A program made the translations under genes and the position numbers. From the IMG/VR virus record IMGVR_UViG_3300021387_001477: a stretch of 64,000 bases of DNA. One strand, written 5' to 3'. The notes under the pieces are model-generated. The model saw nothing but the letters and a program-made list of their open reading frames with translations, had not been told where the DNA came from and did no database searches. The stretch's first letter is position 1, and every line of letters begins with the position of its first letter. Of this stretch, positions 1-29,711 are shown piece after piece. Source of the DNA: a virus (lineage: Duplodnaviria; Heunggongvirae; Uroviricota; Caudoviricetes).

Positions 1-937
1 TCCTAGCTATCTTTTCAATGTCATCTATGGTTATTCCTTTAGCTCCTGGTATTCTTCCTACAAAAAGCTTAGGACCAGACTCATCCGTAATATCTTCTAT
101 ATAAACCTTTCCGTCCTCCACCAATTTTTTAAACTGTTTCAGCTTTGGAGTAAATATTGCTGTATCTCCCTCGAAAAGTATGCCTTCAGATTTTCCATCA
201 TCTGACATTTTTCTTGAGATCTTATACGAATATATAACCCTGCCTTTACCGGTAGTCCAAAGTCGTTGAAGTTCAGAATTAGCTTTATCAATGAAGATAT
301 CAATATTTGGTTCAAGTAGAGAGGGGTCATTCTTTTTATAAGCAGCAAACATAGATTTTGGTGAGAAGTTCGGGTATTCACTCATAACACCAACACCCAA
401 ACCACTTACCAAACCTCCTTTAAGATACATACATAAAGGAAGTGGAAGAGGTATGTGTATTGGTTCTATTCCACCCTGAGGAGATTCAATCATAGGAACC
501 TCTTTTACAATATCTCCTATGATTCCCCAATATAAGTCACTAAGTCTGTTTTTTGTATACCTAGTTGCTGCATGGGGATTTTCTACTCCATCAATCTGTT
601 TATTTCCAAAGAATCCATGGCCACTAAATATTCCAGAATTAACCAGATTTGCATTAAGTCCCTCACATCCAGTGGTACCATGAGGATGCCACTTAGACAA
701 AGATGCAATCAGATTCATAGTTGGAATATCCTGACCTTTCGGATATTGGAGAGCTGCCCATATTAAGCGTTTATAGGATATTTTCATTCCATCAGCTATA
801 TTTGCAATGGCCCTGAAATTATTTACATATGCTCCAAAATAAGTATAACATTCCTCTGCTATTTGTCCAATTGGTTTTGTTAATTGTTCTGGAGTAGCTT
901 GAGGTAATTCTATTTGTTTTTTCTTCCTAGGCATTAT
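1..937 (-). CDS. DNA topoisomerase II DNA-cleavage subunit (GyrA/ParC/T4 gp52-like), N-terminal part; ORF runs off window start
   Basis: Hand translation of minus strand from ATG at 937-935 gives MPRKKKQIELPQ...RAIANIADGMKISYKRLIWAALQYP...WHPHGTTGCEG (GyrA active-site region and HPHG motif); no stop before position 1, so absent from the complete-ORF track. Confidence 0.8.
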   Translation of the reverse strand, partial: MMPRKKKQIELPQATPEQLTKPIGQIAEECYTYFGAYVNNFRAIANIADGMKISYKRLIWAALQYPKGQDIPTMNLIASLSKWHPHGTTGCEGLNANLVNSGIFSGHGFFGNKQIDGVENPHAATRYTKNRLSDLYWGIIGDIVKEVPMIESPQGGIEPIHIPLPLPLCMYLKGGLVSGLGVGVMSEYPNFSPKSMFAAYKKNDPSLLEPNIDIFIDKANSELQRLWTTGKGRVIYSYKISRKMSDDGKSEGILFEGDTAIFTPKLKQFKKLVEDGKVYIEDITDESGPKLFVGRIPGAKGITIDDIEKIAR

Positions 938-939
938 TA

Positions 940-1187
940 TAAATCTTTAAAATTATATGGATTGCTAAGAATTCCTTTGTCATATAATAGTTTCTTTCTG
1001 GCGTCGATATCTTCTACTAAGTTCATAGCGAAATCAATACCGTCTGTTGTAACTTGAAATAGTCTACGTTTTGATTTATCGTAGAATGCATTATAGACGT
1101 CCTCCCTATCAAGGGAGCCTACCTTGTTGTTTATCTTAGGTCGCCTAATCCTAAGACGAGTTTCCTCCTCATAGTTTCCCATGAGAG
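940..1187 (-). CDS. topoisomerase II large subunit (GyrB/T4 gp39+gp60-like), putative exon 3 (C-terminal tail); 5' boundary approximate
   Basis: ORF 937..1182 (...RRLFQVTTDGIDFAMNLVEDIDARKK) resembles GyrB C-terminal region; preceded by group I intron 3' S-element GAAAATATAGTCT. Confidence 0.45.
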
Positions 1188-1425
1188 CAGACTATATTTT
1201 CATCTTCAGCATTACCTGGTCAGATGTCCTACCTTTCGAACAGTCATTAAGACTTACTGTCCTACTCTCTTTCGAGATAGTCGTTGTAGTTATTTCTAAC
1301 TGCGGATTGTCCCTACTACTTTGCTTGTTACTATTGACTTTATAGTACAAAGTATTTAACAGGAGTTTCCCGCTTTCAATAGGATTATACGGTATATATT
1401 TCTATATACTAGGACTCGCTATGAA
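1188..1425 (-). mobile_element. group I intron 2 of topoisomerase II large-subunit gene (ORF-less); boundaries approximate
   Basis: 5' part GTCCTAGTATATAGAAATATATACCGTATAATCCTATTGAAAGCGGGAAACTCCTG shared with intron 1; 3' part CAACGACTATCTCGAAAGAGAGTAGG ... GAAGATGAAAATATAGTCT (R/S-like P7). Confidence 0.55.
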
Positions 1426-1638
1426 TCCTTTAAATCGTCTAAAATGCTTAGCCGGATTCAGACCTACCGGGAATTGAGTTCCTGGCTGTCTTGGATCGGA
1501 AGGGTAGAAGTATTGTCCACCTTGCTCAAAAATTGGTGATTCGGCTATATAAATTAACCCGAAATCAAGCATAAATCTGGCAAACTTACTGATAGCATAT
1601 AACAACCCGTTTTGGATTGCAAGACCATCTTCATCAGC
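1426..1638 (-). CDS. topoisomerase II large subunit exon 2 (ADEDGLAI...YIAESPIF = GyrB DADVDGSHI...YIAQPPLY block); 3' end approximate
   Basis: Exon1 ends ...IIATD and this exon starts ADEDG, reconstituting the IMTDADxDG motif; exon1 last nt is U and intron last nt is G. Confidence 0.7.
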
Positions 1639-3134
1639 CAATTATGTTTACTTTAGGCCGTCTACTCCTAAAGCGAGAGTATCTCTCCACCTAGTTTCCT
1701 AGCGTGTTCAGACTATATTTTCATCTTCAGCATTACCTGGTCAGATGTCCTATCTTTCGAGTGGCCATAAGACTTGCCGCCCTACTCTCTTTCGAGATAG
1801 TCGTTGAAAGCGCAGTATTATATAAATCTAAATTCTGGTTGAAATTTACTTTTTATTCTGTAGTTTATTGCCTGTCTTTTTAGTCCATAGAATTTTGCAC
1901 ATTCTGTTATAGATCCAAAAATTTTCCCTTCAGCATATACTTGTTTTCTTAGTTTTTTCCTAGTACTTGGGTTATTCATGTTATCAACTCTAGTACATAT
2001 TCTAAGATTTGTTACGCGATTGTTTAATGGGTCAGTGTCTATGTGGTCTACCTGAAGATCGCTGCTCAGAGGCTGATTGTTATTTAGGAATACTTCAGCC
2101 ACTAGTCTATGAACTGGTAGCTTAGAGAGATATTGTCTATATCCGTTTTTCTTGCTTCCAAGAGTTATTCCTCGTTTTCCATTAATTATTCCTAATGGAT
2201 GAACTGAGAAGTTTCCGGAATAGTGTTGTACCCACAGAGAGCTGTCAATAGTCTCACCATCTAGCAGGTAATTTTCTAGTTCAACATCTACTATTTTCCA
2301 ATATCTTCCTCTATACCTCTTCCCGGCCTTAGCTTGATCACATAATGGATGTTTCATTAAATCGCTATTATATAATTCTTCTTCCGTATACGAAACATCA
2401 AACTTTGTAAGTTCTTTATCAAAATATGCTTCATATCTGTGATTTTTTACATATTTTGGTATTGATTTGTTTGAATTGTTTTCCTTAACGGTTACCCACC
2501 TTAGATTACTTAAAGAATAATCTAAAATGTTTCTATTTATATGATCGATTGACGTTTTTGTTTCTGGACAGTCCACTGGGATAAATAACTTTGCTAACAT
2601 TCTATGAATCATCACTTTTTTATCCTTAGTATAAGATCCAGTCGGAATTGAATACATAGGATAACCAGATTTATTAAATAATATGGTTTTGTATTGTGTT
2701 CCTTGTTTCCCCTGCTTTATAAATTCTCCTTTTCGATTAATTAGAAAAGCATTTACAACATTCATCTCAGGGTACAGGTACTTTTTTATATCGAACCACT
2801 CTTGATTAATATCATCATAGAAATAGTCCATCACTTCTCCACTTGTGGTGTTCCAACATAAAACTTCGTTTTTTATTTTTATAACTTGATATCCTACTTG
2901 ATCAACTCCTTCTCTGAATGGGATTGAGTTTTCAATAAGGAATTCTCTAGTTATTGTTTTCATTATGTCATGTCTTATCATAAGTATACTTATTTTAAAT
3001 ACTGCGCTTGCGGATTGTCCTTACTATATGAGTTTTTACTGTCAACCCAGTATCATATATTTAACAGGAGTTCCCCGCTTTTAATAGGATTATACGGTAT
3101 ATATTTCTATATACTAGGACAACTGTTACATTTT
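1639..3134 (-). mobile_element. group I intron 1 of topoisomerase II large-subunit gene, carrying an HNH homing-endonuclease ORF
   Basis: Interrupts IMTDADVDG motif; conserved intron 5' module repeated at 3055-3120 and 1350-1420; 3' R/S-like elements at 1700-1810; splice junction gaU|...G|gct. Confidence 0.7.
1818..2981 (-). CDS. HNH homing endonuclease (intron-encoded), paralog of 10386..11894
   Basis: HNH motif (HRLVAEVF...; DHIDTD...N) plus second HNH-like block HINRNILDYSLSNLRWVTVKEN; lies inside intron. Confidence 0.7.
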   Translation of the reverse strand: MIRHDIMKTITREFLIENSIPFREGVDQVGYQVIKIKNEVLCWNTTSGEVMDYFYDDINQEWFDIKKYLYPEMNVVNAFLINRKGEFIKQGKQGTQYKTILFNKSGYPMYSIPTGSYTKDKKVMIHRMLAKLFIPVDCPETKTSIDHINRNILDYSLSNLRWVTVKENNSNKSIPKYVKNHRYEAYFDKELTKFDVSYTEEELYNSDLMKHPLCDQAKAGKRYRGRYWKIVDVELENYLLDGETIDSSLWVQHYSGNFSVHPLGIINGKRGITLGSKKNGYRQYLSKLPVHRLVAEVFLNNNQPLSSDLQVDHIDTDPLNNRVTNLRICTRVDNMNNPSTRKKLRKQVYAEGKIFGSITECAKFYGLKRQAINYRIKSKFQPEFRFI

Positions 3135-4799
3135 ATCCGTTGCTATAATCACTTTGCCAAATCTTGAATATCGTTTAATTTTTTCATATGCCTCTTCAGG
3201 ACTACTACACCCAGTGGTTACGTTGTTTACGTCAATTCCAAGTCCGATGACTCTGAATATAGTAAACAATTCTCTATTATCCATCATAGAATCAGCTGTA
3301 TCAGAAACTACATTCTTGACACGGCCTCTTAAAGGAATGACAGCCGTATACTTCGTACTCTTTCGTGCAGCCTTTAGAGAACCACCAGGAGATAGACCTT
3401 CAACTATAAATGCCTCACAGTCCCATCTTTCTCCAGGTCCGGCAGTTGCATCACTAAGTCCCTCAATCATCTCGGTCTTAGCTTTGTATACTCCACGACC
3501 AGCCGCTTCATCCATAATCCTCTGAGCTTTATCTGCAGCTCCTAAATTTTTCATAGAGTCCGCTAGATAGTTAAGTCTATCTACATGTGCATCCCAATAA
3601 TCTGGATTCTTCTTAAATATCTTCTGGAATTCTTTTACAATTGGATCAAAGTCTGACTGTTTAACTTTGGCGAAATTCTTTAGCTTCTCTTTTGTTTGGC
3701 TATTGAATACTGTTTCTGCCGCTAAAGCTACAACACACATCTTTAGTCCATTGGTTACGTACCTGTGTTTAATTCCATAGGTTTCACGAAGAGCCCTAAT
3801 GAAACAGTCCTCTACATAATTGATATGAACACCAGAGTCTACTACGAGCGAATTTACAGATCCACAATATTCCTTCGGGCTTAACTCTTCATCGACTCCA
3901 AAAGATACAAACAAGTCAATATATTCATTCATGCTAGTATCTTCTGGAATGATTCTCTTCATAAATTCAAACCCATAGCCAACAAACCCAGACCCCAAGA
4001 GCTCCTTTCCCTCAACTTCAATTCTTGCCTTTCTCTTATAAAATTTTTCTAAGATAAGTAAGAAATATTGAAGATTTTGAATAGGAACTGCCATCTTTTT
4101 GATAACAGCTGGTTCATAGATTTCGGGATCTGGTTTAAAAAGAATTATGGTTGACATACCACTAGGAAGCTGTTTTTCAAACTTTTTACCAAATGCTGCT
4201 TTTTCAAGATCAGCTTTCTTCATGGCTCCCTCATAGTATTTATATCCTTTCTTATACCAAACTATATAAAACAGATCTTTCTTACTCCTAGGTCCTGCAT
4301 TATTCCAGAGGTCATATACTGCTTTTGTAGATTTATCCCAGTTAAGAGGAGTAATTCTAGACATTAGTATATAATCTTCAGAAACTGCATTAACAGCACT
4401 AGAGCCAACACCATTCATTCCAACGGTTGCTACTTTACTGTCTGAAAATTTGGAACCAGAGTGAAGGGTACTTATAGATAGGTCCGCTTGAATAATTGGA
4501 GCTCCATCTTCCCCAATCTCTGATGAAGGGTATATTGGAATACCGCGCCCATCATCTGCAACCATAGCATAACCGTTCATATATCTATCAATGATTATAT
4601 TTTGGGCAGAATGATAGCACTCATCAACAGAGTTATCAATTATTTCTCTCAAAAGTGTATCACAGCTGTCAGTTCCCGAAAGATACATTCCGATACGCTG
4701 ACGTATAGCCTGTGGAAACTTTAAGAGTTTAATCTCATCTGGATTTTCTAAATTATTAAATTCATCATTCATATTATTATAAATTAAATTAATATTCAA
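3135..4799 (-). CDS. topoisomerase II large subunit exon 1: GHKL ATPase + TOPRIM (GyrB/T4 gp39-like)
   Basis: MNGVGSSAVNAVS (GyrB GLHGVG region), EGLSPGGS (TOPRIM EGDSAGGS), ends ...IIATD at splice site; in-frame stop 2 codons into intron. Confidence 0.85.
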
Positions 4800-4879
4800 A
4801 AATCTGAGAGAACACTTTTAATATTCCCTCAGATATAAGAAAATAACCTTCTTGGAAGAGCAAAAAAAAAGAATAGGGA

Positions 4880-5473
4880 TTATACTCCCCATTCTTCTGA
4901 TAATTCATATAAATCTACGACACTATCCCAACTCCCTCCGATTAGGCTTGGAGAGTGTGTTGCTATAATAACTTGGCCTGGATATTTACCTTCTGCCAAT
5001 ATCTTTTGAATGATATTTTGTACTCCTATATGTACATGAGTTTCTGGAAGATCAAAAAGCAATACTCCAGGAAAACAAGATAGATAATGAAGTACAAGAA
5101 GGGCATTATATTCACCAGGAGATGGAGGAAATCCCGTCTTCTTCTCAAGTGCTCCATTCTTTTCTATCCACTTATGCTCTAGGTAATCGTCATCAAAAGC
5201 CTCAGGAAATTTATTTAAAATATCTGAGGAAATTGGAACATTTTTATATGGATCTAAGAAATCACAGTAAAAGAATTTCTCTGGCTTATTATTTTTCCAT
5301 GTAAGCTCTAATTCCATTCCCTCGTCTGGACCATATGCTAAGGACCGAAGTAGGTGAGTTTTTCCATATCCATTCGGCCCAGTTACGAATGTCACTTTTC
5401 CTGGGAGCTTTATGTTTAGCTCTTTATCACCATAAATTAATGATTTCTTTATCTTTATCTTTTCTAGTTTCAT
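4880..5473 (-). CDS. small P-loop ATPase (ABC/RecF-like, AAA_21-type)
   Basis: Walker A GPNGYGKTHLL, Walker B LLFDLPE, ATHSP. Confidence 0.55.
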   Translation of the reverse strand: MKLEKIKIKKSLIYGDKELNIKLPGKVTFVTGPNGYGKTHLLRSLAYGPDEGMELELTWKNNKPEKFFYCDFLDPYKNVPISSDILNKFPEAFDDDYLEHKWIEKNGALEKKTGFPPSPGEYNALLVLHYLSCFPGVLLFDLPETHVHIGVQNIIQKILAEGKYPGQVIIATHSPSLIGGSWDSVVDLYELSEEWGV

Positions 5474-5480
5474 ATCTCGA

Positions 5481-5650
5481 AAAATAAAGGGAGGAACTTA
5501 ATCCTCCCTAAGGGTGCGGCAAATCCACTGGCGTACATCTGGGCCTGAATAGTACCGGCGTGGCTGCGGGCGGTGGTGTATAACCAGGGCCAAGCGTCTT
5601 CGGGTGCCGGTTTTGCGCAAAGGTTGGGGTAGGGCCACAACGCCATGTCG
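5481..5650 (-). ncRNA. candidate small RNA or structured attenuator leader: GC-rich ~170-nt promoter-to-terminator unit
   Basis: Promoter core CATATATAAGG (5657-5667, minus orientation) then atypically GC-rich segment, ending in hairpin GGGAGGAACTTAATCCTCCC + T-run immediately before ATG of 4880..5473; only R/P-rich spurious ORFs. Confidence 0.4.
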
Positions 5651-5670
5651 CATCCTCATATATAAGGATT

Positions 5671-6171
5671 TCAGGGGTTTTGAATTTCCTGGCACTCTTT
5701 ATATCCATATCCTTTTCTTAGAATATTGAGTGGGATTTGCTTTAAATATCCCACAAAATATATTATAGAAAATATTTCAAATATCTGAGGAATTTCTACT
5801 AGCGGTTTCCATTTTGAACCCTCCCCAAGCTTTGCAGAAAAATCTAAAAGGCTTCGTTCTATTCGTTCACAGTTGGTCCGAGTATTGTATATATACTTAC
5901 TATCGGTTGTTATATGTGGCACACTTTCCATTTCATATTCGAGTTTTATACACCGCTCTTCTACTAGTTCTGTAACTAAATAGAATTCTCCGGCTCCATT
6001 TTTAAAGTCTTCTAAAATATCTGGGCATATTTGGAGAATAGAGGGTAAGTACAGTAGATCAATTTCTATAAGATATCCCTCAGTATACTCTACTATCCCT
6101 AGAGAGATTTTAAATGCCCACATATCTACTTTGTTAGAGATTATTCTTAATGATCTTATTTTAATCATCAC
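5671..6171 (-). CDS. hypothetical protein
   Basis: 166-aa ORF, typical AT-rich codon usage. Confidence 0.5.
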   Translation of the reverse strand: MMIKIRSLRIISNKVDMWAFKISLGIVEYTEGYLIEIDLLYLPSILQICPDILEDFKNGAGEFYLVTELVEERCIKLEYEMESVPHITTDSKYIYNTRTNCERIERSLLDFSAKLGEGSKWKPLVEIPQIFEIFSIIYFVGYLKQIPLNILRKGYGYKECQEIQNP

Positions 6172-6192
6172 TTATAAGAAAAGAAAGGGGAC

Positions 6193-6402
6193 CTATAGTC
6201 CCCTGGTTATGTCATAGGTATTCCATGGAGTTCGAATTATTCTCCATGAGTCCCTATAACTATTAATAACACCGATAACAACACTTGATCTTTCTTTTCT
6301 TGGAATTAATAATACTCCAAGAAGCCCTATTGTATATTCCAGTAAAAAACATACCGGCCACATAATTATACAATAGGCAAGTTTAAAAATATTTTTTATC
6401 AT
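6193..6402 (-). CDS. small membrane protein (start corrected to internal Met; tracked ORF start overlaps promoter motif)
   Basis: ORF 6193..6432 begins ATGCCTTATATATG which is the promoter core; hydrophobic 69-aa product from MIKNIF. Confidence 0.45.
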   Translation of the reverse strand: MIKNIFKLAYCIIMWPVCFLLEYTIGLLGVLLIPRKERSSVVIGVINSYRDSWRIIRTPWNTYDITRGL

Positions 6403-6418
6403 AGCTTTGTTGTTTATA

Positions 6419-6429
6419 CATATATAAGG
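6419..6429 (-). promoter_or_regulatory. conserved phage promoter core CCTTATATATG (minus orientation)
   Basis: Motif plus upstream TTTTTTTTCCGTCTCATA element; preceded by hairpin terminator of upstream gene. Confidence 0.55.
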
Positions 6430-6638
6430 CAATGAAAAGATATGAGACGGAAAAAAAAATAAGAGGGCTTATATAATACCCTCCTCAAACATAAATAAAG
6501 CCTTTCATAGATAAAAAAAAAGACTTCTCGCTGGATCACTCGTTTATCACAGGCACTTCTCTCTTCATCATAATCTCTCTCCTCTGTCCTGCTTCGGTTC
6601 CATTCCACACGAAGTCTTATAATATTTATATTTCTTTA

Positions 6639-6649
6639 CATATATAAGG
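6639..6649 (-). promoter_or_regulatory. conserved promoter core (minus orientation)
   Basis: ACATATATAAGGG + GACGGAAAAAAAAA + hairpin AGGGCTAACGTAGCCCT (terminator-promoter cassette). Confidence 0.5.
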
Positions 6650-6692
6650 GTTTGAAGGAATTATAGACGGAAAAAAAAAGAAAGGGCTAACG

Positions 6693-6863
6693 TAGCCCTA
6701 ATCTTTTAAGCTCTAAATATAAATTCAAGCCCACTTCTAAATCTATCACTTGATCATAGTCAGGACAGGTACAACAACCGACCATTCCTTTATAGTCTGG
6801 CATCCCATCCTCAAAAATTTTTTCTGTAGGGTTTATTCTGCTTTTGTAATATCCACAGTCCAT
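6693..6863 (-). CDS. small Cys-rich protein (56 aa, below ORF-track cutoff)
   Basis: Hand translation MDCGYYKSRINPTEKIFEDGMPDYKGMVGCCTCPDYDQVIDLEV...; follows promoter at ~6945. Confidence 0.35.
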
Positions 6864-7249
6864 ACTATTTTGGTTTTAGTGTGTGTTAAACAAAAAACGT
6901 AAGAGTCTTAACCAAATTTTTCTCTCTAGGTATTCTCTTACAATAATAAGGGTTTGGGGGATTATGAGCGGTAAAAAATCTAGCACCATATAAATAATAA
7001 AAAATAGAAAAGATCGTAGTTGTCTTCTCTATTTCTTTCTTCGTAAAAAATAACCACCGCCTATACTTTTGGCAGTGGTTTAAGTTTCTACTCCTTATGG
7101 TACACTCACTTTTTCTTACGTATAAGATATTCCAGCATGTTAACTGGGATAAGCTGCTTGGCCAATAATACAGCTTTCTTATTATAAGGTGGTTCCATCT
7201 CTCAGGAAGTAGAGTTAGTTTTGTTAAATTTTCGAAAGATTTTTTATTA

Positions 7250-7260
7250 CATATATAAGG
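7250..7260 (-). promoter_or_regulatory. conserved promoter core (minus orientation) for 6886-7240 small gene(s)
   Basis: ACATATATAAGGG + GACGGAATAAAAAAA + hairpin. Confidence 0.45.
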
Positions 7261-7298
7261 GTTTAAAGGAATTATAGACGGAATAAAAAAAGAGGACA

Positions 7299-7850
7299 TC
7301 AATCCTCTTTCCTCTCAATTTTAAGACCCCAAGGAGATTCTTTACTTGGAACTAACAGAGACGTCTTCTTTTCAGAAAATTTAAGTCCCTTACTTGCAAG
7401 CTGATTCTTAAGGAATTCGAAGGTCTTCTTTCCAATTAAATAATAACCGCAGTTAGACCAGTTATCAACGAACATTTTATATTGTTCCTCTGTTAAGCTT
7501 AATAGGTCAGATACAGTACGAATCCCAGTATCCCCTCCTCTAAGAAAGTTTAACAATCTCGCTCTGGTATTCTTATCTCCTCTAGTTACTAGAGGCAAGT
7601 TGAGAAGAAAAACATCAACTCCCCTAGTCTTCCAATACTCTTGTTCTGCTTCAGATATATTTTCCGGATTCAAGATATCATTAAACTTATCACTTTGTTT
7701 CACTCTCTCCTCTATCTCAGATATCATTACAAGTTTGGTTTGTAGTTTTCTTAAGAACTCTTCGTCCAGCTTTTTTCTCTTATCCAAGAACCTATCTTCT
7801 AGCTCTTGTCTCTTTTTTAAATAGTCTTCTAAAATCTCTTTTTCGTTCAT
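7299..7850 (-). CDS. hypothetical coiled-coil protein
   Basis: 183-aa ORF with promoter CTATATATAAGG at 7872-7882. Confidence 0.5.
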   Translation of the reverse strand: MNEKEILEDYLKKRQELEDRFLDKRKKLDEEFLRKLQTKLVMISEIEERVKQSDKFNDILNPENISEAEQEYWKTRGVDVFLLNLPLVTRGDKNTRARLLNFLRGGDTGIRTVSDLLSLTEEQYKMFVDNWSNCGYYLIGKKTFEFLKNQLASKGLKFSEKKTSLLVPSKESPWGLKIERKED

Positions 7851-8028
7851 ATCATTTTGTTTTAATTGTTTCTATATATAAGGCAATAGGTAGATCTGGG
7901 ACGGTAAAGAGAGAGAGCCCACCAATTGACTCCCCCCTAGGCGAGGAGTCTATTCCACTGCCTAATCAAATCGGTAATGTGACTCTTTAGTAAAGACTCC
8001 CGGGCTTTGTTTTTTTTTTCTTAAAATT

Positions 8029-8039
8029 CTTATATATAG
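8029..8039 (+). promoter_or_regulatory. conserved promoter core (plus orientation)
   Basis: CTTATATATAG 21 nt upstream of ATG 8060, no SD. Confidence 0.5.
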
Positions 8040-8059
8040 AAACTAAAGTTAAAATAACA

Positions 8060-8674
8060 ATGATGACGCAGAAAGAAGCTATAGATGAATTGATCCTAAA
8101 GGTTGATTATCTCTTAGACGAAATCGAACAACATGAAAAATTTGAAGACGAAGAACAAGGAGAGTTTCAAATCATGGCCTACGAAGAAAACAAAAAGAGG
8201 GTTGAAGCTTATCTTGTAACTCTAGGTGCACTGGATCCATCCTTATCTACTATTGAAGGATTGCGAGCTAGATGTAGTCAGGTTAAAGAGGAGAGATATG
8301 GTTCTTCTGATGCCTTTAAACAACCGGAACCCAATGATATAGAGAAGGAGCTGGCTGAAATTCTAACTCCATGGTATAAGGAGGAGGTTAAGAATAATGG
8401 CGGCTACGGAACACAGTTGGATTTAGAGACTGATGAAAACGCAATCCTCGCCAAAATTTATATGGAGAAAGGAGAAAAGCAGGTGGTTATTGGTAATGAA
8501 CCGGATGACGTAGACGAGCCGTGCGATTCTGATACTTTTGCATTCTATCCGTATCGAGGGAGAGTCCAGGTGATCTATAATGAATATGCTGACGGAGACT
8601 TTTATAGCTATCCGATAGAGTTCCAAGAAAAGGCGCTTGAAATTATTAAGAAAAAATTAAAAGAGGGGAAATAA
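8060..8674 (+). CDS. hypothetical acidic protein
   Basis: 204-aa ORF. Confidence 0.5.
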   Translation: MMTQKEAIDELILKVDYLLDEIEQHEKFEDEEQGEFQIMAYEENKKRVEAYLVTLGALDPSLSTIEGLRARCSQVKEERYGSSDAFKQPEPNDIEKELAEILTPWYKEEVKNNGGYGTQLDLETDENAILAKIYMEKGEKQVVIGNEPDDVDEPCDSDTFAFYPYRGRVQVIYNEYADGDFYSYPIEFQEKALEIIKKKLKEGK

Positions 8675-8742
8675 TCCTCTCTTTCTTTTGTCTTCTGGTA
8701 AAAAAAAGAAGACTGTATGATTCAATCTTCTTTGTTTCTAAT

Positions 8743-9363
8743 TTACATCCAAGAGTAAGTTCCCGTTTCTCTACGTTTATAATTGTAGAAAGTCTGAGCA
8801 CATCTATCCATATCACCAGTTCTGTAATTATTTAATCTATTCCAATCCCATGCATTAGATTGAATAAAGTACATGATGGCGGCATTTCGTTTTATACCAA
8901 TATCATTGATGTCAGTGAATCTGTCGTCATACCATCTCCTTTCTAAGTAATGATATAAAAGACCTGATACACGATGTATTCCATGACCATATAGTGCTCC
9001 CTTTATAGACATATCAAATTCAGAGATATCCCATATACTTACTTCAGGATCTACCCGAAGTGGCCAATTATGCCTCAGCATGTTGAAATATTGATTATAA
9101 TGATAATTATATAAGTTCTCAAGACGCTGCTCTTCTTTTCTCTGCTCCTCTTGAATTGCTCTTTGTCGTTCGGCTTCTATTCTTTCAGCCTCTCTTCTCT
9201 TTCTCCTTTCTTCGCGCTCTTTTTCCTTCTTTTCCATCCATGCGCAAAGTTTTGGATTCTTTTTTAGTATTGATCTTCCTGATTTTGTTGCTCCAAGAAA
9301 AACCAAAGTCCCAGATACTAAAATAGTAGTACCAAGACTAATTATTTTTGTTGACGTTTTCAT
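8743..9363 (-). CDS. hypothetical membrane-anchored/secreted coiled-coil protein
   Basis: N-terminal hydrophobic segment, EKEREERRKRREAERIEAERQR coiled coil; promoter 9381-9391. Confidence 0.5.
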   Translation of the reverse strand: MKTSTKIISLGTTILVSGTLVFLGATKSGRSILKKNPKLCAWMEKKEKEREERRKRREAERIEAERQRAIQEEQRKEEQRLENLYNYHYNQYFNMLRHNWPLRVDPEVSIWDISEFDMSIKGALYGHGIHRVSGLLYHYLERRWYDDRFTDINDIGIKRNAAIMYFIQSNAWDWNRLNNYRTGDMDRCAQTFYNYKRRETGTYSWM

Positions 9364-9428
9364 AACTTTTTTTCTTTAATCATATATAAGGCAATGGAAA
9401 GATATAAGACGGAAAAAAGAGGTGGATT

Positions 9429-10055
9429 CTAAAGTTCCACCCCATCAAAGAATTTACGAATCTTTTTAGTCTCTAAAGTTCTAGTATCGATGTAGTACAT
9501 CTCTTTAAGTACACTACCAAAATCAATAGGACAATCATAATCATAGTTATTCTTCTCTACTAATAGAATAACCTCATGAGCTGAAACATCAATGTAAACT
9601 TTATGTCCACGATAACTCTTTCCAGTAAAAGAGATTGGATATATTGCAACTGGACAATAGGAGTTATCTGATGCCCTAGTTACTATGAGATTATCAACGA
9701 TCGTAAAGTTCGCATAAATGAGACGACTAACTTTGAGGTTGCCTCTTTCGTTTTTACATATATAAAAATGATACCCGAATACTGAGTCGTGTTCAAACAC
9801 AAATACGGATTCTGGAAATCTCTTTCTCAGAATCTTAAGGTTTTCCTGAGTAATCTTACCTTCAATTTTTAGATAAACTTCCTCTCTGGCATTAAAACTA
9901 ATAAGAGTTGATGCACTAAAGATTATTGATCTTTTATTAAACGACACTCCGCAACTTCTTTCTGATTTCTTTCCTTCTCTTGTCAAGGGAACTAGTTTTA
10001 CACCACCACAGTTATCCCTCTCTTCGACAAGTTTTTCTTTTTTATAAATTTCCAT
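9429..10055 (-). CDS. hypothetical protein
   Basis: 208-aa ORF; promoter CATATATAAGG at 10125-10135. Confidence 0.5.
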   Translation of the reverse strand: MEIYKKEKLVEERDNCGGVKLVPLTREGKKSERSCGVSFNKRSIIFSASTLISFNAREEVYLKIEGKITQENLKILRKRFPESVFVFEHDSVFGYHFYICKNERGNLKVSRLIYANFTIVDNLIVTRASDNSYCPVAIYPISFTGKSYRGHKVYIDVSAHEVILLVEKNNYDYDCPIDFGSVLKEMYYIDTRTLETKKIRKFFDGVEL

Positions 10056-10385
10056 ATTTTCTAAATTTTAATTAAATAAAAATGTAAGAGTCTTAACCAA
10101 ATTTTCTCTTTAGGTATTCTCTTACATATATAAGGCAATAAAGTCTTCTGAAACGGGTAATTTGCGCTTTTGAAGGAGGGAAAGTCTTATAGGTGAAGGA
10201 GAACAACGTAGGTGAGAGTTTATTGTTGTTTCTTCTTAAATCATTTCAAATCATATTCTTGGGAGGTGGAAAGGAAGTAGCTAGCCTCGAAACCTCCCCT
10301 TAAAAGAATATTGATATGGCGAGACAATAACAACTTAGATCCGGTTTGTGTGTTCCGGGATTAAAATGAAAAACACTAAGAAAAT

Positions 10386-11894
10386 ATGGTTTGTAATGAA
10401 CTAAAAGACAAATTACCTGAAGGATGGAGAGAAAAATTTGTACATAGAGACTGTGACCAAGCTAACTATGAATTCGCTATGTTTGAGATTGATGGGAAGA
10501 ATAAGATACTAGTCCGAAACCCAGATACCGACGACATAATGGAATACTACTATGATGATTTTGATGAATGGATTGAGATAGATAAAAAAGTTATGAGATC
10601 TCTAATAAATAAAGACACAGAGTCCAAAGTTTATATTAGTCCTGATGGAAAGTATATAAAACATATTGGAAGAAAGAAAAGAGAACTATCTTCAAAATTA
10701 GTAGATAGGTGCCCGTACCCAATAATATCCATATGTAGTTGTCAAGTAAAAACCCACAGACTTATAGCTTTTATATTTATTCCAAACCCATATCCAGAAA
10801 AATATAATATAGTTAATCATAAAGATCTAAGCAGAACAAACTTTAGCAAAGAGAACTTAGAATGGTGTGATGCTAAATGGAATGCAAAAAGAGAGAATCA
10901 AAAGAAATATATTCCTGGAACAGTTTATGAAAGACTATCAGATGGGAGAAGATTTTCTTCTGCTGATTTGGCCGAAGAGTATAAGAATAAGCAATCAAGC
11001 TCGGCAGTTTTGGGAGCAATTAGCCGCGGAAAAACTTATCATGGGAGTACATGGAGAGTAATAGACCTTTCATTAGAAGATTATTTATCACGACACCCGC
11101 TGACAGATAGTTGGATCCAACACCCTACACTAAAAGATGTTTATGTAAATAGCTGTGGAGTACTTAGGATAAAAGATAAAATAGTTGTTGGAAATAAACA
11201 CGAGTGTTTATATTATTCAATAAGTATTGAAGGGAAACTATATAAGACCCACAGAATAATAATGGAAGCCATTCTTAATAGAGAGCTCCTAAACACAGAG
11301 GTAGTTGATCATATTATTCCTGTTTCTAAAGATGACATAAACAATGAAATATCTAATCTTAGAGTAGGAACGCAAAAAGATAACCTAAATAATGAACATA
11401 CACGTATTAAGTGGATTAAGAAGGGATCGCTTAAAAAATTTTCATTATTTGGTGACTTTGTAGAAGAATATAAAACTATAGATGATGCGCTTAAGGCGAA
11501 TAGTGAGATAAAAAGTAAAGTCTTGCTTATTAGGGCAACTGAGCTAGGCGCTGGAGCACTTATTTCTGCTGGAAACTTTCTCTGGTGTTTTGAAGGAGAG
11601 GAGGATAGAGTAAAAGATAGACTAGATTTTATATACTACAAAACGCCAGTAAACTCCTTAACAATAAAACCAGAATCCGCCTCAATAAATCTCAAAGATC
11701 TATCCAAAGAAATCCCAATTAATAAACTCAACAAAGTACTGAACACAGGATTTCCCTTAAATGGATACGTTTACCAGCGGGGAAAACCTAATGATATCCT
11801 CATTGATAAATCTAATACAGCATTGGAGAAGAAACGAGATAATATATCATGGAGAGAGTTTACAGGAAGAAATAAAAATAGAGAAGACAACTAA
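10386..11894 (+). CDS. free-standing HNH homing-type endonuclease (paralog of 1818..2981)
   Basis: Shared N-terminal region (YYYDDFDEW vs YFYDDINQEW) and HNH blocks (THRLIAFIF...N; THRIIMEAIL...DHIIP...N). Confidence 0.65.
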   Translation: MVCNELKDKLPEGWREKFVHRDCDQANYEFAMFEIDGKNKILVRNPDTDDIMEYYYDDFDEWIEIDKKVMRSLINKDTESKVYISPDGKYIKHIGRKKRELSSKLVDRCPYPIISICSCQVKTHRLIAFIFIPNPYPEKYNIVNHKDLSRTNFSKENLEWCDAKWNAKRENQKKYIPGTVYERLSDGRRFSSADLAEEYKNKQSSSAVLGAISRGKTYHGSTWRVIDLSLEDYLSRHPLTDSWIQHPTLKDVYVNSCGVLRIKDKIVVGNKHECLYYSISIEGKLYKTHRIIMEAILNRELLNTEVVDHIIPVSKDDINNEISNLRVGTQKDNLNNEHTRIKWIKKGSLKKFSLFGDFVEEYKTIDDALKANSEIKSKVLLIRATELGAGALISAGNFLWCFEGEEDRVKDRLDFIYYKTPVNSLTIKPESASINLKDLSKEIPINKLNKVLNTGFPLNGYVYQRGKPNDILIDKSNTALEKKRDNISWREFTGRNKNREDN

Positions 11895-11912: not shown

Positions 11913-12323
11913 TTATCTAATTCTTCTAAACCTAACTACGTACTTGCTTTCATCTCTCCTAACTTGGGCCCCTTTTTCTCGAATGAATCTAAGAATTGGA
12001 TGGGTAATCCAGTTAGGAACTAAATCCTCTCGTTTAGTATCACACTCTACTTTAAGATCTTTGCAATTCATAATCTTATCATACATTCTTGTCATTGCAT
12101 ATGCACTCCCCTCAAATTCGATTGTATTTTCATCAATCATTTTCATAGGCATAGCACATTCATATGCATCCCCAGCTAATAGATCAAATAATAACTTAAT
12201 CTTTGGCCCATAACTCGCACAATATGACGTGTAATACTGATCATAGAACTTTCTAATCTCAAATATCTTAGAAGTTGGTACATAGTTTGTATTTGAATCC
12301 GTTATTACTTTATGTTTCCACAA
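11913..12323 (-). CDS. DNA polymerase A, terminal exon (motif C region and C-terminus)
   Basis: CASYGPKIKLLFDLLAGDAYECAMPMKMIDE ~ T7 gp5 LQSAGALICKLW...AYMAWVHDE; ECDTKREDLVPNWITHP ~ T7 DTEGKMGPNWAICH; preceded by intron S-element and G. Confidence 0.65.
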   Translation of the reverse strand: MWKHKVITDSNTNYVPTSKIFEIRKFYDQYYTSYCASYGPKIKLLFDLLAGDAYECAMPMKMIDENTIEFEGSAYAMTRMYDKIMNCKDLKVECDTKREDLVPNWITHPILRFIREKGAQVRRDESKYVVRFRRIR

Positions 12324-12640
12324 AGACTAGACTATATCATTATCCATATTTCAGGATAGATCGCGCTTCGAGAGCAGGACTTTCACCTGATCTCTACTTC
12401 CTTTCAGAATAGTCGTTACACCTTCCATTTCTGGCTTGGCTCGGGATTAGCATGCATTTCTGTTTAGCTTTCCCCGATAGCAAGATTTCTCTCACACCCT
12501 ATATTTCTAGGTTCACGATCTTTTGCACTCTAGAATTACCCCTAGAGGCCACAATTTTACTTATGGACTACAATAATTGGTTGGAGTGGTTGTTTCCAGC
12601 CCTCTTGTATTGATTCACGTATATTATTAAAGAATCCTGA
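12324..12640 (-). mobile_element. group I intron in polA (canonical core); 5' boundary approximate
   Basis: CGGGGAAAGCTAAACAGAAATGCATGCTAATCCCGAGCCAAGCC ... GTGTAACGACTATTCTGAAAGG ... AATGATATAGTCTAGTC ... G| then exon. Confidence 0.55.
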
Positions 12641-12669
12641 GGCCATGATTGAGGCAGTGCCACCTTGTC

Positions 12670-12700
12670 GTTATTACTTTATGTTTCCACAAAGACTAGA
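12670..12700 (-). repeat. duplicate of the 31-nt intron-3'-tail/exon-start sequence CTAGTCTTTGTGGAAACATAAAGTAATAACG (other copy 12298-12328)
   Basis: Exact-looking repeat directly after a second intron S-element but not followed by coding sequence. Confidence 0.5.
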
Positions 12701-12925
12701 TCATATCATTATCCACATTCATGGATAGGCTGCGCTTCGGAATACAGAATTTCACTGTAAACCTACTCCTTTCGGATGATCGTTACACTTTCTCTATCTC
12801 TAGAGCTTAGCACGGGATTGGCATATTATTACTAACTTAGCTTTCCCCGTTAGCAAGATCTCTCACACCTAAGATTTCTTAGTTCACAGCCTGTTTCATA
12901 TAGGATTACTCCTATAAGCTACAAT
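12700..12925 (-). mobile_element. group I intron in polA (canonical core); boundaries approximate
   Basis: CGGGGAAAGCTAAGTTAGTAATAATATGCCAATCCCGTGCTAAGC ... GTGTAACGATCATCCGAAAGG ... AATGATATGATCTAGTC. Confidence 0.5.
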
Positions 12926-13209
12926 TTTATTTATAGGAAGATTCACGCCTAATCTTTCACACCTCGCCTTTAGATTATTCTTCTCTCTGGAATTTGCTTT
13001 TAGCCACAGATCATATTCTTTAATTTTTAATTTATCGCCCATTATTGAATTAATATATCCATCATGGCTAAATGGATACTGTTGTTGAGAGGCCACATAC
13101 TCTCTCAATTTAGGGAAACTTGTATAAAGTCCCTGTATAATATCATCAGCTTCCTCTTCTGAGCAAAATAGTCTTTCAGCCAATGATTTCTTTCCTAGAC
13201 CATAAAGAA
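12896..13209 (-). CDS. DNA polymerase A internal exon (palm: end of motif B to QG region); true 3' splice end near 12926
   Basis: SLAERLFCSEEEADDIIQGLYTSFPKLREYV ~ Klenow [31 protein letters not shown]; ...ARCERLGVNLPIN ~ AAERAAINAPMQG; naive join to micro-exon is out of frame by one nt (see findings). Confidence 0.6.
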
Positions 13210-13464
13210 CCGTTTTGTTATCCTAGAAGTTTTTTTATCTCCTAGCTCTAGTAATTCATTTCTTACTAGTCCAGCATATATTTTCAACTCATATTTTCGA
13301 GTTGGTGGGCTCTCTTGGAAGGATTATATTTATTCACCTTCTATGCGTTACACTAGATTAAAGCCTCTCGCAATCTTTAACCTTAGCACGGGGTTTGGAT
13401 TCTCACCATTCACCGTTTTAGTCCACTTATCATCTATAATATCACTACTATAGACGGCATTTCT
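13210..13464 (-). mobile_element. family-B small group I intron (copy 2), 255 nt
   Basis: GTCTATAGTAGTGATATTATAGATGATAA...ACGGTGAATGGTGAG...GTAACGCATAGAAGGTGAATAAATATAATCCTTCC...GGATAACAAAACG; >80% identical to copies at 13485, 14242, 26113, 29352, 55218. Confidence 0.65.
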
Positions 13465-13484
13465 ACCTAAGAAGACAGTTTTGA
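13465..13484 (-). CDS. polA micro-exon (~20 nt, TCAAAACTGTCTTCTTAGGT) encoding core of polymerase motif B (KTVFLG ~ T7 AKTFIYG)
   Basis: Sits between two tandem family-B introns; with upstream exon gives RKRSF|KTVFLG; exact splice points uncertain. Confidence 0.45.
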
Positions 13485-13739
13485 CGTCTGTTATCCTATA
13501 GGCTTTTTATCCTATAGCTCTATTAGTTCATTTCCTAATAGTCCAGCATATATTTTCATCATTTCTTTTATGATGTCGAGCTCTCGTGGAAGGATTATAT
13601 TCTATTTATAGTTTCACCTTCTATGCGTTACGCTGCTATAGACTCTTTATTTCTATAGTTAGCACGGTATTAGGAATCTCACCCTTCACCGTTTTAGCTC
13701 GATTATCATCTATAGTATCACTACTATAGACGGCCCAAA
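13485..13739 (-). mobile_element. family-B small group I intron (copy 1), 255 nt
   Basis: Same conserved 5' GTCTATAGT..TATAG module, core and 3' GGATAACAGACG. Confidence 0.65.
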
Positions 13740-13740
13740 A

Positions 13741-13830
13741 TGACCTTTTTCTCCACATCTTCTTGTCTTTCTTGTCTAGTTTATCAAATTTATCGCCTAG
13801 ATAGAGCTTGGCGGTATATATATAACAATG
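13741..13830 (-). CDS. polA exon fragment (...TAKLYLGDKFDKLDKKDKKMWRKRS); 5' boundary unknown
   Basis: Open frame upstream of intron B1 ending in R-x-x-x-(F)K that completes motif B with the micro-exon. Confidence 0.35.
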
Positions 13831-13849
13831 TGTTCAGAGAGTGTCGTTA

Positions 13850-14143
13850 CTTCTCTCTGGTTCTCTTATGAACTCCTGTATATTTCTATACAGATCAGAC
13901 TATATCTTCACCTCAATACCGAGGGCTTACCGTTTCCACTACACGAACTTTGTAGTGTACTCTCTTTCGAGATAGTCGTTGGGGTTTTGATACAGAGCTA
14001 GTTAGTCATACTAGCCTTAATTTTATAAATATTTATCAAAACCTGCTGATTGGCCTTATTCTTTGATTTCTTACGGAAGTGACTAAATCTTCTCGTACCA
14101 AAGACTTAACGGGCGTTTCCAGCATTTAGTAAGTTTATTTTTC
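13850..14143 (-). mobile_element. group I intron (family C-like) in polA; boundaries approximate
   Basis: CAACGACTATCTCGAAAGAGAGTACAC ... GAAGATATAGTCTGATCTGTATAGAAATATACAGGAGTTCATAAGAGAACC tail (tail duplicated at 14530-14570). Confidence 0.45.
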
Positions 14144-14144
14144 T

Positions 14145-14241
14145 TGGGATCACTCCCAAGCGATACTTAAATCTAATATCTTCGCCTTTATTAAACTTAT
14201 CAATCAAGTCGGGATCTCCGCTTGCGAAACCTGCAGCTTTT
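14145..14241 (-). CDS. polA exon fragment between motifs A and B (KAAGFASGDPDLIDKFNKGEDIRFKYRLGV...)
   Basis: Follows G of intron B3; resembles Klenow LLTAFAEGKDIH region; ends at 20-nt hairpin repeat CTTGGGAGTGATCCCAAG. Confidence 0.4.
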
Positions 14242-14498
14242 CAGTTATGTTATCCTAAGAGCTTTTTATCTCTTAGTTCTATAGATTCTTATTTATATTC
14301 TCTATAGCTCGGCGTACATTTTTAACTATCGCTAGTTATCGGACACTCTTGGAGATACTATATTTATTCAATCTCTACGCTCTACATTACTAGAGTGCCT
14401 TTCGAAATCACTCTAGTTAACTCGGTATTTAGATTCACACTATTTACCGATTTTGCCCGATTATACTCTATAGTGTTTCCACTATAGACGGCATTTCT
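14242..14498 (-). mobile_element. family-B small group I intron (copy 3)
   Basis: GTCTATAGTGGAAACACTATAGAGTATAATCG...CGGTAAATAGTGTGAATC...GTAGAGCGTAGAGATTGAATAAATATAGTATCTCC...GGATAACATAACTG. Confidence 0.6.
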
Positions 14499-14509
14499 AC
14501 CTCTGCACT

Positions 14510-14741
<232 letters not shown>

Positions 14742-17423: not shown

Positions 17424-17472
17424 GGCTCAGATATAAGGAAAAGAGAATATTGGGGAAGCAAAATTCTTATAA

Positions 17473-18848: not shown

Positions 18849-18859
18849 CCTTATATATG
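18849..18859 (+). promoter_or_regulatory. conserved promoter core CCTTATATATG, 2 nt before ATG (leaderless-type)
   Basis: TTCCTTATATATGTTATGAAA. Confidence 0.5.
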
Positions 18860-19194: not shown

Positions 19195-19224
19195 AAACCC
19201 CATTATTTTTTAGCCCTTGAAATT

Positions 19225-19388: not shown

Positions 19389-19409
19389 CCGTCTATAATA
19401 ATTTAAATG

Positions 19410-19420
19410 CCTTATATATA
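19410..19420 (+). promoter_or_regulatory. conserved promoter with full upstream element
   Basis: TTTTTTCCGTCTATAATAATTTAAATGCCTTATATATAG, 20 nt before ATG 19441. Confidence 0.55.
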
Positions 19421-29708: not shown

Positions 29709-29711
29709 TGA

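Follow-up and report, generated by a model that had tools for sequence, protein, structure and literature searches.

The stretch of viral DNA considered here (IMG/VR record IMGVR_UViG_3300021387_001477; 64,000 nt, hereafter "the window") belongs to a tailed phage of the class Caudoviricetes. Between positions 7311 and 6186 of its minus strand, small genes are separated by a recurrent element of ~35 nt, built around an 11-mer, CCTTATATATG. The latter is taken here as the core of a bipartite, phage-specific promoter family, with a probability of about 0.5 for this explanation as a whole. The window is part of ENA contig ERZ12302816 NODE_16 (317,399 bp), and the phage is a jumbo phage, its genome measuring at least 317 kb. 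Its genes include those for topoisomerase II-like subunits, a family-A-like DNA polymerase, a nicotinate phosphoribosyltransferase (NAPRTase), an isochorismatase, ClpP, eight tRNAs, and many HNH endonucleases. No close relatives were found among GenBank phages. In IMG/VR, the pattern CCGTC-N16-CCTTATATATG retrieves 113 stretches, spread over dozens of contigs of 200-400 kb, and a search with the pattern core-nn-ATGAAA returns the same contigs. In conserved genes, these relatives are only ~65-70% identical to the window at the nucleotide level, and 40-55% at the protein level.

The initial annotation described each small gene in the region 6190-7300 as bracketed by its own terminator and promoter. 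Four complete terminator-promoter-transcript-terminator units are indeed present from 7311 to 6186, in a constant order: terminator hairpin, T-run, upstream box, 15 nt, core, a transcript of 150-250 nt, and the next terminator. Their features are listed below, all on the minus strand, with scores from a position weight matrix (PWM) where given; open reading frames are abbreviated as ORFs.

7288-7311, minus: terminator hairpin GAAAGAGGATTGATGTCCTCTTTT and T-run at the end of gene 7299-7850, opening cassette A
7276-7281, minus: upstream box CCGTCT of cassette A, 15 nt ahead of the core
7250-7260, minus: promoter core CCTTATATATG of cassette A, PWM score 22 bits
7106-7198, minus: 30-aa ORF, the sole ATG ORF in the ~200-nt cassette A transcript
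7046-7081, minus: terminator of cassette A, AACCACTGCC..GGCGGTGGTT then ATTTTTT
6966-6971, minus: box variant CCGCTC of cassette B, 14 nt ahead of the core
6941-6951, minus: core variant CCTTATTATTG of cassette B
6889-6941, minus: hairpin GTAAGAG..CTCTTAC and T-run of cassette B, starting at the last base of the core
6687-6863, minus: 58-aa ORF of cassette B
6671-6699, minus: terminator hairpin AGGGCTACGTTAGCCCT and T-run, the T-run abutting the next upstream box
6665-6670, minus: upstream box CCGTCT of cassette C
6639-6649, minus: promoter core CCTTATATATG of cassette C, PWM score 23 bits
6486-6638, minus: transcribed body of cassette C, longest ATG-initiated ORF 11 aa, no Rfam match
6451-6485, minus: terminator hairpin AGGAGGGTATTATATAAGCCCTCTT and T-run, end of cassette C
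6445-6450, minus: upstream box CCGTCT of cassette D
6419-6429, minus: promoter core CCTTATATATG of cassette D, ATG 16 nt downstream
6193-6402, minus: 69-aa hydrophobic ORF of cassette D
6186-6204, minus: terminator hairpin AGGGGACTATAGGTCCCCT and T-run, end of cassette D
6169-6179, minus: core-like TCTTATAAGTG abutting the ATG (6168) of gene 5671-6168 (start at offset 0)

Two of the four units are devoid of a convincing ORF; one of these is cassette C, whose body (6486-6638) has no credible match in Rfam either. The long listed ORFs 6886-7302 and 6414-6608 cross promoters and terminators and are probably spurious. The hairpin of cassette B belongs to an element present in two near-identical copies (6889-6951 and 10075-10135, both minus), each composed of a core, a 46-nt hairpin (GTAAGAGAATACCT..GGTTAAGACTCTTAC), and a T-run. 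Located before genes 6687-6863 and 9429-10055, it might serve as a stabilising stem-loop at the 5' end or as an attenuator, or be an RNA of ~50 nt.

Core, upstream box, and terminators

The exact 11-mer occurs 10 times in the window, against 0.08 expected, and 24 times when up to one mismatch is allowed; the figure of about 25 copies first proposed agrees with the second count and not with the first. The generalised core CTTATANNTG (CTTATAnnTG) is found 31 times versus 4.0 expected, a number attained in none of 100 shuffles. An iterated PWM spanning positions -6 to +14 of the core yields 54 sites scoring at least 9 bits in the window, compared with ~14 in shuffled sequence. The motif is therefore a real phenomenon, larger than originally described. 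From the aligned copies, the conserved part is YCTTATAnnTG preceded by AAA(T/G), with the two final positions always being a T and a purine (G in 21 copies, A in 3). All 31 generalised cores end in T-purine, and 14 of them in TATG. Logos obtained from 54 box-bearing and 218 other unique contexts read CCtTnAAAnYCTTATAnnTG(A/T)AA.AAA, the box-bearing class displaying in addition A-CCGTCT and an AAA at -12 to -10. The full element is bipartite, made of an extended core (CCtTnAAAnYCTTATAnnTG) followed by an A-rich stretch and supplemented, in a subset, by the upstream box.

Intergenic DNA represents ~17% of the window after light ORF curation, and it harbors 40 of the 44 PWM sites scoring at least 14 bits. 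A co-oriented gene or tRNA starts within 100 nt downstream of 35 of these 44 sites, the leaders ranging from 0 to about 75 nt. Two back-to-back pairs had been reported, and both are found (44237/44258 and 62630/62650), together with four others (17428/17465, 21873/21904, 36271/36307, and 41586/41623). These six divergent pairs occupy spacers of ~60-70 nt, too tight to accommodate other promoters. Orientation, intergenic siting, divergent pairs in such spacers, use ahead of tRNAs, and conservation in diverged relatives all support the view that the motif is a promoter.

A second conserved element ~15 nt upstream had also been proposed. In about ten copies, a CCGTCT box stands exactly 15 nt before the core; in general terms, a CCG(T/C)C(T) box begins exactly 21 nt ahead of it. 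Boxes at exactly -21 are located at 6445-6450, 6665-6670, 7276-7281, 7899-7904, 9407-9412, 10151-10156, 19389-19394, and 33036-33041, and one at 6966-6971 is displaced by 1 nt. Among 203 cores not selected for the box, six of the seven upstream CCGTC occurrences lie at exactly -21. In the relatives, the box loosens to CCnTCT. A second group of boxes, TTTGC(G/T), has its G at the same position as in the CCGTCT class. This group precedes the topoisomerase B-like, DNA-polymerase-like, and helicase-like genes and a tRNA-Glu/Met pair, while the CCGTCT class precedes small orphan ORFs. Box and TATAnn lie 18 nt apart, a spacing within the range of the sigma-70 family. Reading CCGTCT as the -10 "CGTC" box of an extracytoplasmic function (ECF) sigma factor was rejected, as no conserved -35 "AAC" is found upstream and the core would fall in the leader.

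A hairpin followed by a T-run, as first remarked for several copies, is found at most 45 nt upstream of 17 of the 44 cores, versus 3.1 at random positions, and a terminator scan of the region 5400-10400 detected 9 terminators where 3.2 were expected. For boxes of the CCGTCT type, the T-run of the terminator leads straight into the box, and the T-tract ahead of the box doubles as the U-tract of the preceding intrinsic terminator. Terminator and promoter very probably form one compact cassette, and each small gene, tRNA cluster, or short RNA would be a transcription unit of its own.

This is the layout of the promoter-early-stem-loop (PeSL) cassettes known from T4-type phages (Arbiol et al. 2010, PMC2839356; Comeau et al. 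2014, PMC4122927). Both are repeated composites of a stem-loop terminator, an A/T tract, and a strong conserved promoter, sited among the small orphan ORFs of a variable region, with each ORF as its own unit. They also share a mode of conservation. The 51-nt cassette at 7243-7291 is 88% identical to three relatives, while the ORFs at 5.6-10 kb have no tblastn match in the relatives' loci (1.9 Mb of DNA); here as in PeSLs, the cassettes are kept while the intervening ORFs differ. In contrast, the PeSL promoter has the host sigma-70 consensus, whereas the promoter described here matches no known host consensus, and sigma-70-type sites are not enriched in the scan (21 versus 15.8 expected). Furthermore, the core also drives tRNAs and enzyme genes, and the start codon is often fused to it. 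The likeness is one of cassette layout. PeSLs also mediate recombination between cassettes or the formation of mini-circles, a role that would be putative here. By analogy, the cassette would work like a PeSL, though its sequence family and the phage clade carrying it are both new. A composite terminator-promoter design around orphan ORFs is already known from T4-type phages; the element brings no new principle unless the polymerase is unusual; beyond the known PeSL pattern are the frequent fusion of start codon and promoter and the possible upstream-box classes.

The other cores of the window are as follows.

4830-4840, minus: core TCTTATATCTG with a TTTGC box at -21 and a terminator upstream, driving the topoisomerase II B-like gene 3126-4772
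5657-5667, minus: core driving a 177-nt GC-rich unit (5480-5656) with a terminator at its end and no clear ORF
7873-7883, minus: core with CCGTCC box and terminator, upstream of gene 7299-7850
8028-8038, plus: core upstream of gene 8060-8674
9381-9391, minus: core with CCGTCT box and terminator, upstream of gene 8743-9363
10125-10135, minus: core with CCGTTT box, ahead of the repeated hairpin element and of gene 9429-10055
17428-17438, minus: core with TTTGC box, upstream of the DNA-polymerase-like gene, divergent partner 17465-17475
17465-17475, plus: core, ATG 6 nt downstream (gene 17482-17937)
18849-18859, plus: core with TTTGC box, ATG exactly 2 nt past the G (gene 18862-19194)
19224-19234, plus: core behind a terminator
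19410-19420, plus: core with CCGTCT box and terminator, upstream of gene 19441-19740
19964-19974, minus: core with TTTGCG box and terminator, tRNA-Glu 4 nt past the G, then tRNA-Met
21388-21398, minus: core behind a terminator, ATG 2 nt past the G (gene 20759-21385)
21873-21883, minus: core, ATG 2 nt past the G (gene 21493-21870), divergent partner 21904-21914
24188-24198, plus: the sole core with a canonical host-type box, TATATTTG, TTTGCG box and terminator upstream
25681-25691, plus: core variant 11 nt upstream of tRNA-Thr and tRNA-Ala
26432-26442, plus: core 2 nt behind a terminator, ATG 2 nt past the G (gene 26445-26990)
27838-27848, plus: core upstream of gene 27864-28784
28842-28852, plus: core behind a terminator, upstream of a tRNA-like segment and two group-I-intron-like elements
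29698-29708, plus: core, tRNA-Leu starting 4 nt past the G
33057-33067, plus: core with CCGCCT box and terminator
34338-34348, plus: core variant, ATG 1 nt past the G (gene 34350-34769)
36271-36281, minus: core, ATG 2 nt past the G (gene 35303-36268), 68-nt divergent spacer with 36307-36317
41078-41088, minus: core variant, ATG 2 nt downstream (NAPRTase gene 39882-41075), layout kept in the relatives' orthologues
41586-41596, minus: core, ATG 2 nt past the G (gene 41092-41583), divergent partner 41623-41633
44237-44247, minus: core, ATG 2 nt downstream (gene 43863-44234), facing away from 44258-44268 at a distance of 10 nt
44258-44268, plus: divergent partner core of 44237-44247
46426-46436, plus: core upstream of gene 46454-47038
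49807-49817, plus: core 1 nt behind a terminator, ATG 2 nt past the G (gene 49820-50473)
51666-51676, plus: core with TTTGCG box, upstream of a 693-aa helicase-like gene
60041-60051, minus: core 3 nt behind a terminator, ATG 2 nt past the G (gene 58596-60038)
62630-62640, minus: core, ATG 4 nt past the G (gene 62197-62625), weak divergent partner 62650-62660

The unit at 5480-5667 (minus) measures ~177 nt from promoter to terminator and is unusually GC-rich for this genome. ORFs overlap in three frames; its body (5480-5656) has no Rfam match, and its fold is unexceptional (z = -1.5).

Start codons and the start of transcription

Shine-Dalgarno sequences, already reported as absent, are scarce indeed: SD-like 4-mers are found at 4 of 70 starts, upstream of which G is depleted and a purine at -3 is common. 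An ATG is located exactly 2 nt past the terminal G in 9 of the 40 cores of the window, including the one at 18862 pointed out by the initial annotation, and eight of these nine open ORFs of at least 40 aa. Any other offset is represented by at most two cores. The relatives display an offset-0 class (TG-ATG) as well as the +2 class, and the starts at +0 to +4 are all ATG. In most +2-start genes, the next in-frame methionine is far downstream. The NAPRTase provides a further check: its N-terminus, MKEYKFIVSILDNDLYKF, matches the Pfam N-terminal domain from about residue 11, and the conserved N-terminal motif of the family is present from residue 10. The NAPRTase orthologues (49-52% amino-acid identity) keep the succession terminator, AAATTCTTATATATG, at, ATG; their loci were fetched with the core-nn-ATG pattern itself, which introduces a selection bias, while the window's own copy, not so selected, has the same layout. 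Judging from the sequence, the ATG of the NAPRTase and the other +2 ATGs are the real starts.

Several +2-start genes are placed immediately after a terminator or in divergent spacers of 60-70 nt, which requires that their transcript start only a few bases from the core. The tRNAs agree with this. Of the three tRNAs proposed at first to be driven by the motif, tRNA-Glu (5' end 19959, minus) and tRNA-Leu (29713, plus) each start 4 nt past the core G, whereas the core at 28842 precedes a tRNA-like segment but no called tRNA. The tRNA-Glu of a relative starts 7 nt past the core G. Transcription usually starts at a purine (+1) preceded by a pyrimidine (-1). Given the start codons 0 or 2 nt past the G, the tRNAs 4 nt past it, and the fit of T9-R10 to the pyrimidine/purine rule, transcription would start at the invariant terminal purine (G10) or at most 3 nt later, a position that we infer with somewhat better than even confidence. 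About one-quarter of the promoters in the window would then yield leaderless mRNAs, or mRNAs with a leader of 1-3 nt, translated without Shine-Dalgarno pairing.

The segment following the core at 28842 deserves a description of its own. It extends from 28853 to 29630 (plus) and begins with a tRNA-like 5' segment, GACTCGGCTTGGTGGTGGAATGGTAGACACG, and ends with a T-arm/acceptor-like 3' segment, GTCGAATCCCATCCGAGCTACA. Two group-I-intron-like elements lie in between, at 28933-29263 (E = 7e-9) and 29342-29566 (E = 9e-6), both under the Rfam gathering score. ARAGORN with intron search called no tRNA in 28800-29720.

Which polymerase, in which host

Two parts held at a fixed spacing would suggest that a multisubunit RNA polymerase, most probably the core enzyme of the host, reads the element with the help of a sigma-type factor. 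Its specificity would be due either to a primary sigma of the Bacteroidota type that tolerates a divergent -7 box or to a sigma factor or appropriator encoded by the phage. A sigma-type reader, of host or phage origin, is the weakest step of this explanation, though a rather likely one. The core, TATATATG, matches five of the six defined positions of the Bacteroidota -7 box TAnnTTTG and is identical at 10 of 11 positions to the host-type promoters of Bacteroides phage B40-8 (CCTTATATTTG). That phage carries five promoters of the form TTG-N19-(C/T)CTTA(T/A)nTTTG, and no RNA polymerase is found among its 46 annotated genes. The possibility that YCT is a general extension of Bacteroides promoters was discarded, since it is not enriched in B40-8 beyond the five repeated promoters. 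As in the Bacteroidota promoters recognised by sigma-ABfr, the element has two parts and an AT-rich spacer, its core shares TA..T.TG, and the genes are devoid of Shine-Dalgarno sequences, as in the phylum (PMC6847099). AT-rich patches one and two helical turns upstream also recall the promoter logo of F. johnsoniae (PMC6847099). Unlike sigma-ABfr promoters, however, an A replaces T-7, which is near-invariant in the -7 box (TAnnTTTG or TAHHTTTG) along with T-8, T-6, and G-5, and the YCT and TATA positions are conserved; in place of a -33 element (TTTG or TTG), the box is CCGTCT, CCnTCT, or TTTGC, and 23 nt separate the first base of this box from the TA. The start proposed above, at most 3 nt past the G, also differs from that of Flavobacterium promoters, 4-5 nt past the G of the -7 box (PMC6847099; PMC9723704), as does the proportion of leaderless mRNAs, about one-quarter of promoters versus only 3.7-5.5% in Bacteroides and Flavobacterium (PMC7366714, PMC9723704).

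A shared downstream element combined with a phage-specific upstream box at a fixed spacing is likewise found in T4 middle promoters (MotA box at -30 and sigma-70 -10) and in the gp28 and gp34 promoters of SPO1. By analogy, the upstream-box types could define temporal classes, which remain putative here, and no homologue of MotA, AsiA, or a sigma factor has been identified.

Several observations weigh against the explanation given above and, in particular, against the host's own sigma factor as the reader. The host -7 box TAnnTTTG (TANNTTTG) is not enriched in the window (75 versus 67.7 expected). Only one of the 31 CTTATANNTG cores is canonical (TATATTTG); 26 of them lack a T at the near-invariant T-7 of the host, a position at which A is preferred. 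TTTGC-type boxes stand 23 nt from the TA, versus 19-21 nt in the host. A host-type start 4-5 nt past the G would remove the +2 and +0 start codons from the transcripts, although this conflict may be smaller in Bacteroides, where the literature describes the box merely as "centred at -7". Some +2 genes, including the NAPRTase gene of the window, could also be reached by read-through from the upstream gene. Altogether, the geometry appears to fit a host sigma poorly, and to fit promoters reaching +1, such as the TATG(+1) of the phiKZ non-virion RNA polymerase (nvRNAP). The systematic departure from the host consensus, together with the proposed start geometry, keeps a phage-encoded factor in play.

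Such a factor was sought at several levels. Pfam and PHROGs searches with ~100 proteins from the window and its flanks (84 kb in all of the 317 kb, with ~10 kb of flank on the left and 4.6 kb on the right) detected no sigma factor or RNA polymerase. A phmmer search with E. coli RpoD regions 2-4 against 3,895 ORFs gave spurious best matches. No DFDGD motif is found in ORFs of at least 200 aa in ~1.9 Mb (window and relatives' loci), and a scan for T7 motif C was negative too. Among 51 clusters of relatives' proteins of at least 300 aa, Pfam identified neither an RNA polymerase nor a sigma factor, and an IMG/VR scan for the beta' motif NADFDGD returned no contig of the clade among the first 120 matches listed. 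Split beta/beta'-like subunits are found neither in the 84 kb of genome nor by the ~1.9 Mb DFDGD scan nor among the 51 large-protein clusters.

These negative results, drawn from partial samples (window and flanks, relatives' samples, and the IMG/VR matches listed), weigh against the proposal that the element is read by a phage-encoded polymerase of a non-sigma-70-like kind, either split and multisubunit, as in phiKZ and AR9, or single-subunit. The element recognised would then be contiguous, of ~20 nt, with the G of TATG as its start, and the phage would depend on the host polymerase for only part of its transcription or for none. The jumbo size of the genome (at least 317 kb, and 200-400 kb in relatives), the very strong conservation of the ~20-nt contiguous core across diverged relatives, and the lack of enrichment of the host-type -7 box are all in its favor. 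The phiKZ nvRNAP late promoters (PMC7618050) and the phiKZ and AR9 early promoters (PMC5312081) also belong to jumbo phages and are AT-rich and conserved within their clades, extended AT-rich promoters being typical of jumbo-phage virion polymerases (PMC5312081). The nvRNAP element reaches the start site as (-3)TATG(+1) (PMC7618050), just as the core described here ends in T-G/A, with a purine as likely +1 and start codons 0-2 nt further. The phiKZ late consensus, however, covers only 4-5 bp and is devoid of an upstream element, whereas alternative boxes at a fixed distance are typical of sigma-type or activator-assisted recognition; besides, phiKZ and AR9 transcripts are not leaderless, the leaders of phiKZ late transcripts being of at least 26 nt. 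This proposal is judged unlikely, though it deserves to be taken seriously. Ordinary strong promoters of the host primary sigma (Bacteroidota sigma-ABfr type, -33/-7), with a start 3-5 nt past the G and with the extra conserved bases merely reflecting common descent and cassette duplication, would account for the five matches out of six to TAnnTTTG, for the five similar promoters of B40-8, a phage with no annotated RNA polymerase, for the T-tract and G/C box near -33, and for the missing Shine-Dalgarno signal and the amber-suppressor tRNA described below. They leave unexplained the single canonical core out of 31, the A over a near-invariant T, the unenriched TAnnTTTG, a box spacing 2-4 nt beyond the host norm, the +0 and +2 start codons that clash with a start 4-5 nt past the G, and the conservation of non-host positions across relatives at only 40-55% protein identity, the host itself being a presumed one. 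Taken together, this makes ordinary host promoters an improbable explanation.

The motif might instead act in RNA, as a processing site or as a translation signal replacing the Shine-Dalgarno sequence on longer transcripts. The tight spacing of 0 or 2 nt to the start codon, the missing Shine-Dalgarno sequences, and the siting of the motif just upstream of tRNA 5' ends, a plausible processing position, would suit such a role. Leaders nonetheless vary from 0 to about 75 nt, motifs stand directly downstream of terminators and back to back in divergent spacers where there is no upstream sense transcript, and the second DNA box, kept at a fixed distance upstream, would be superfluous for a signal acting in RNA behind a terminator. 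A role in RNA is hence very hard to credit, and a bipartite promoter with a sigma-type reader is retained as the preferred explanation.

A Bacteroidetes-like host, as put forward in the initial annotation, is a plausible candidate: the lack of Shine-Dalgarno sequences, the amber-suppressor tRNA, and the likeness to B40-8 speak for it, while the non-canonical box and the genome bins do not. The tRNA in question has the anticodon CTA ("Pyl" in ARAGORN), is located at 25594-25666 (plus), and is clustered with tRNA-Thr and tRNA-Ala. Amber-suppressor tRNAs are typical of recoded gut phages, including crAss-like and Lak phages infecting Bacteroidota. Its presence may signal that TAG is recoded in other parts of the genome; in the window itself, the ORFs are not clearly improved when TAG is read as sense. 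In a collection of bacterial genomes, only three contigs belong to the clade: one of 376 kb from a "Bacilli bacterium" bin, one of 371 kb assigned to Mycoplasmatota, and one of 2.2 kb assigned to Erysipelotrichaceae; the other matches of this genome-contig scan were mostly due to chance. Deducing the host from these bins was judged uninformative, low-GC phage DNA having possibly been binned with low-GC bacteria. The two large contigs, JAGAYY010000025.1 (376 kb; L250, L265, L282, L288, and L298) and CASEGV010000001.1 (371 kb; L256), carry multiple copies of the core and are probably phage genomes binned with or as bacteria.

Relatives, neighboring genes, and biological meaning

Among the relatives, L001 displays seven co-oriented cores in 4 kb. 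Dozens of them carry tandem full promoters, box plus core, exactly 68 nt apart (e.g., L008 9902-10001, L010 403-502, and L015 9793-9892). This tandem, a conserved double promoter or a very short unit, is absent from the window. The NAPRTase gene is conserved in at least 33 related loci; in the window, it is adjacent to an isochorismatase-family (PncA-like) gene (38737-41075, minus), and the pair suggests a phage-encoded NAD salvage module.

The DNA-polymerase-like locus (11913-17423, minus) includes an 893-aa ORF whose similarity to a family-A DNA polymerase is weak (PDB 9qhs_A, E = 2.5e-5). Four Rfam-significant group I introns come after this ORF on the same strand, within 2.5 kb (14564-14800, 13876-14185, 12677-12942, and 12308-12572), and the gene looks like it is split into at least five exons. 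Stop-codon recoding was ruled out as the cause of the paucity of ORFs at 12.3-14.7 kb, the four introns being located there. Between the topoisomerase II B-like gene (3126-4772) and the A-like gene (1-934), which continues beyond the left edge, lie an HNH/I-TevI-type endonuclease gene (1818-2981) and two small ORFs (window 1-4772, minus; L436 12048-13394). Finally, a 33-nt segment (9249-9281) exactly matches the crAss-like phage cr128_1 (MT774392, 76982-77014), where it is not annotated.

For the clade as a whole, the ~35-nt element constitutes a precise and portable signature of transcription units in a large group of uncultivated jumbo phages from human and ruminant guts. It improves the calling of gene starts, many of those annotated in the window being too long or spurious, flags short non-coding units, and recruits related contigs, including some mislabelled as bacterial bins. 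Its systematic deviation from the consensus of the host tells where a phage-encoded specificity factor might be sought. If the leaderless inference is true, leaderless initiation is far more frequent in this phage of a Shine-Dalgarno-poor host than in the phylum presumed to harbor it. At its furthest reach, the element may reveal unrecognised phage-encoded machinery, whether an RNA polymerase of a non-sigma-70 kind or a strongly diverged sigma factor, that in this widespread clade of 200-400 kb gut and rumen phages would start transcription at the G of TATG and give rise to leaderless mRNAs and near-mature tRNA 5' ends, with the boxes (CCGTCT, TTTGC, or none) setting temporal classes. This is rather doubtful, but if true, gene expression in these phages would be largely independent of the promoter and ribosome-binding rules of their hosts.

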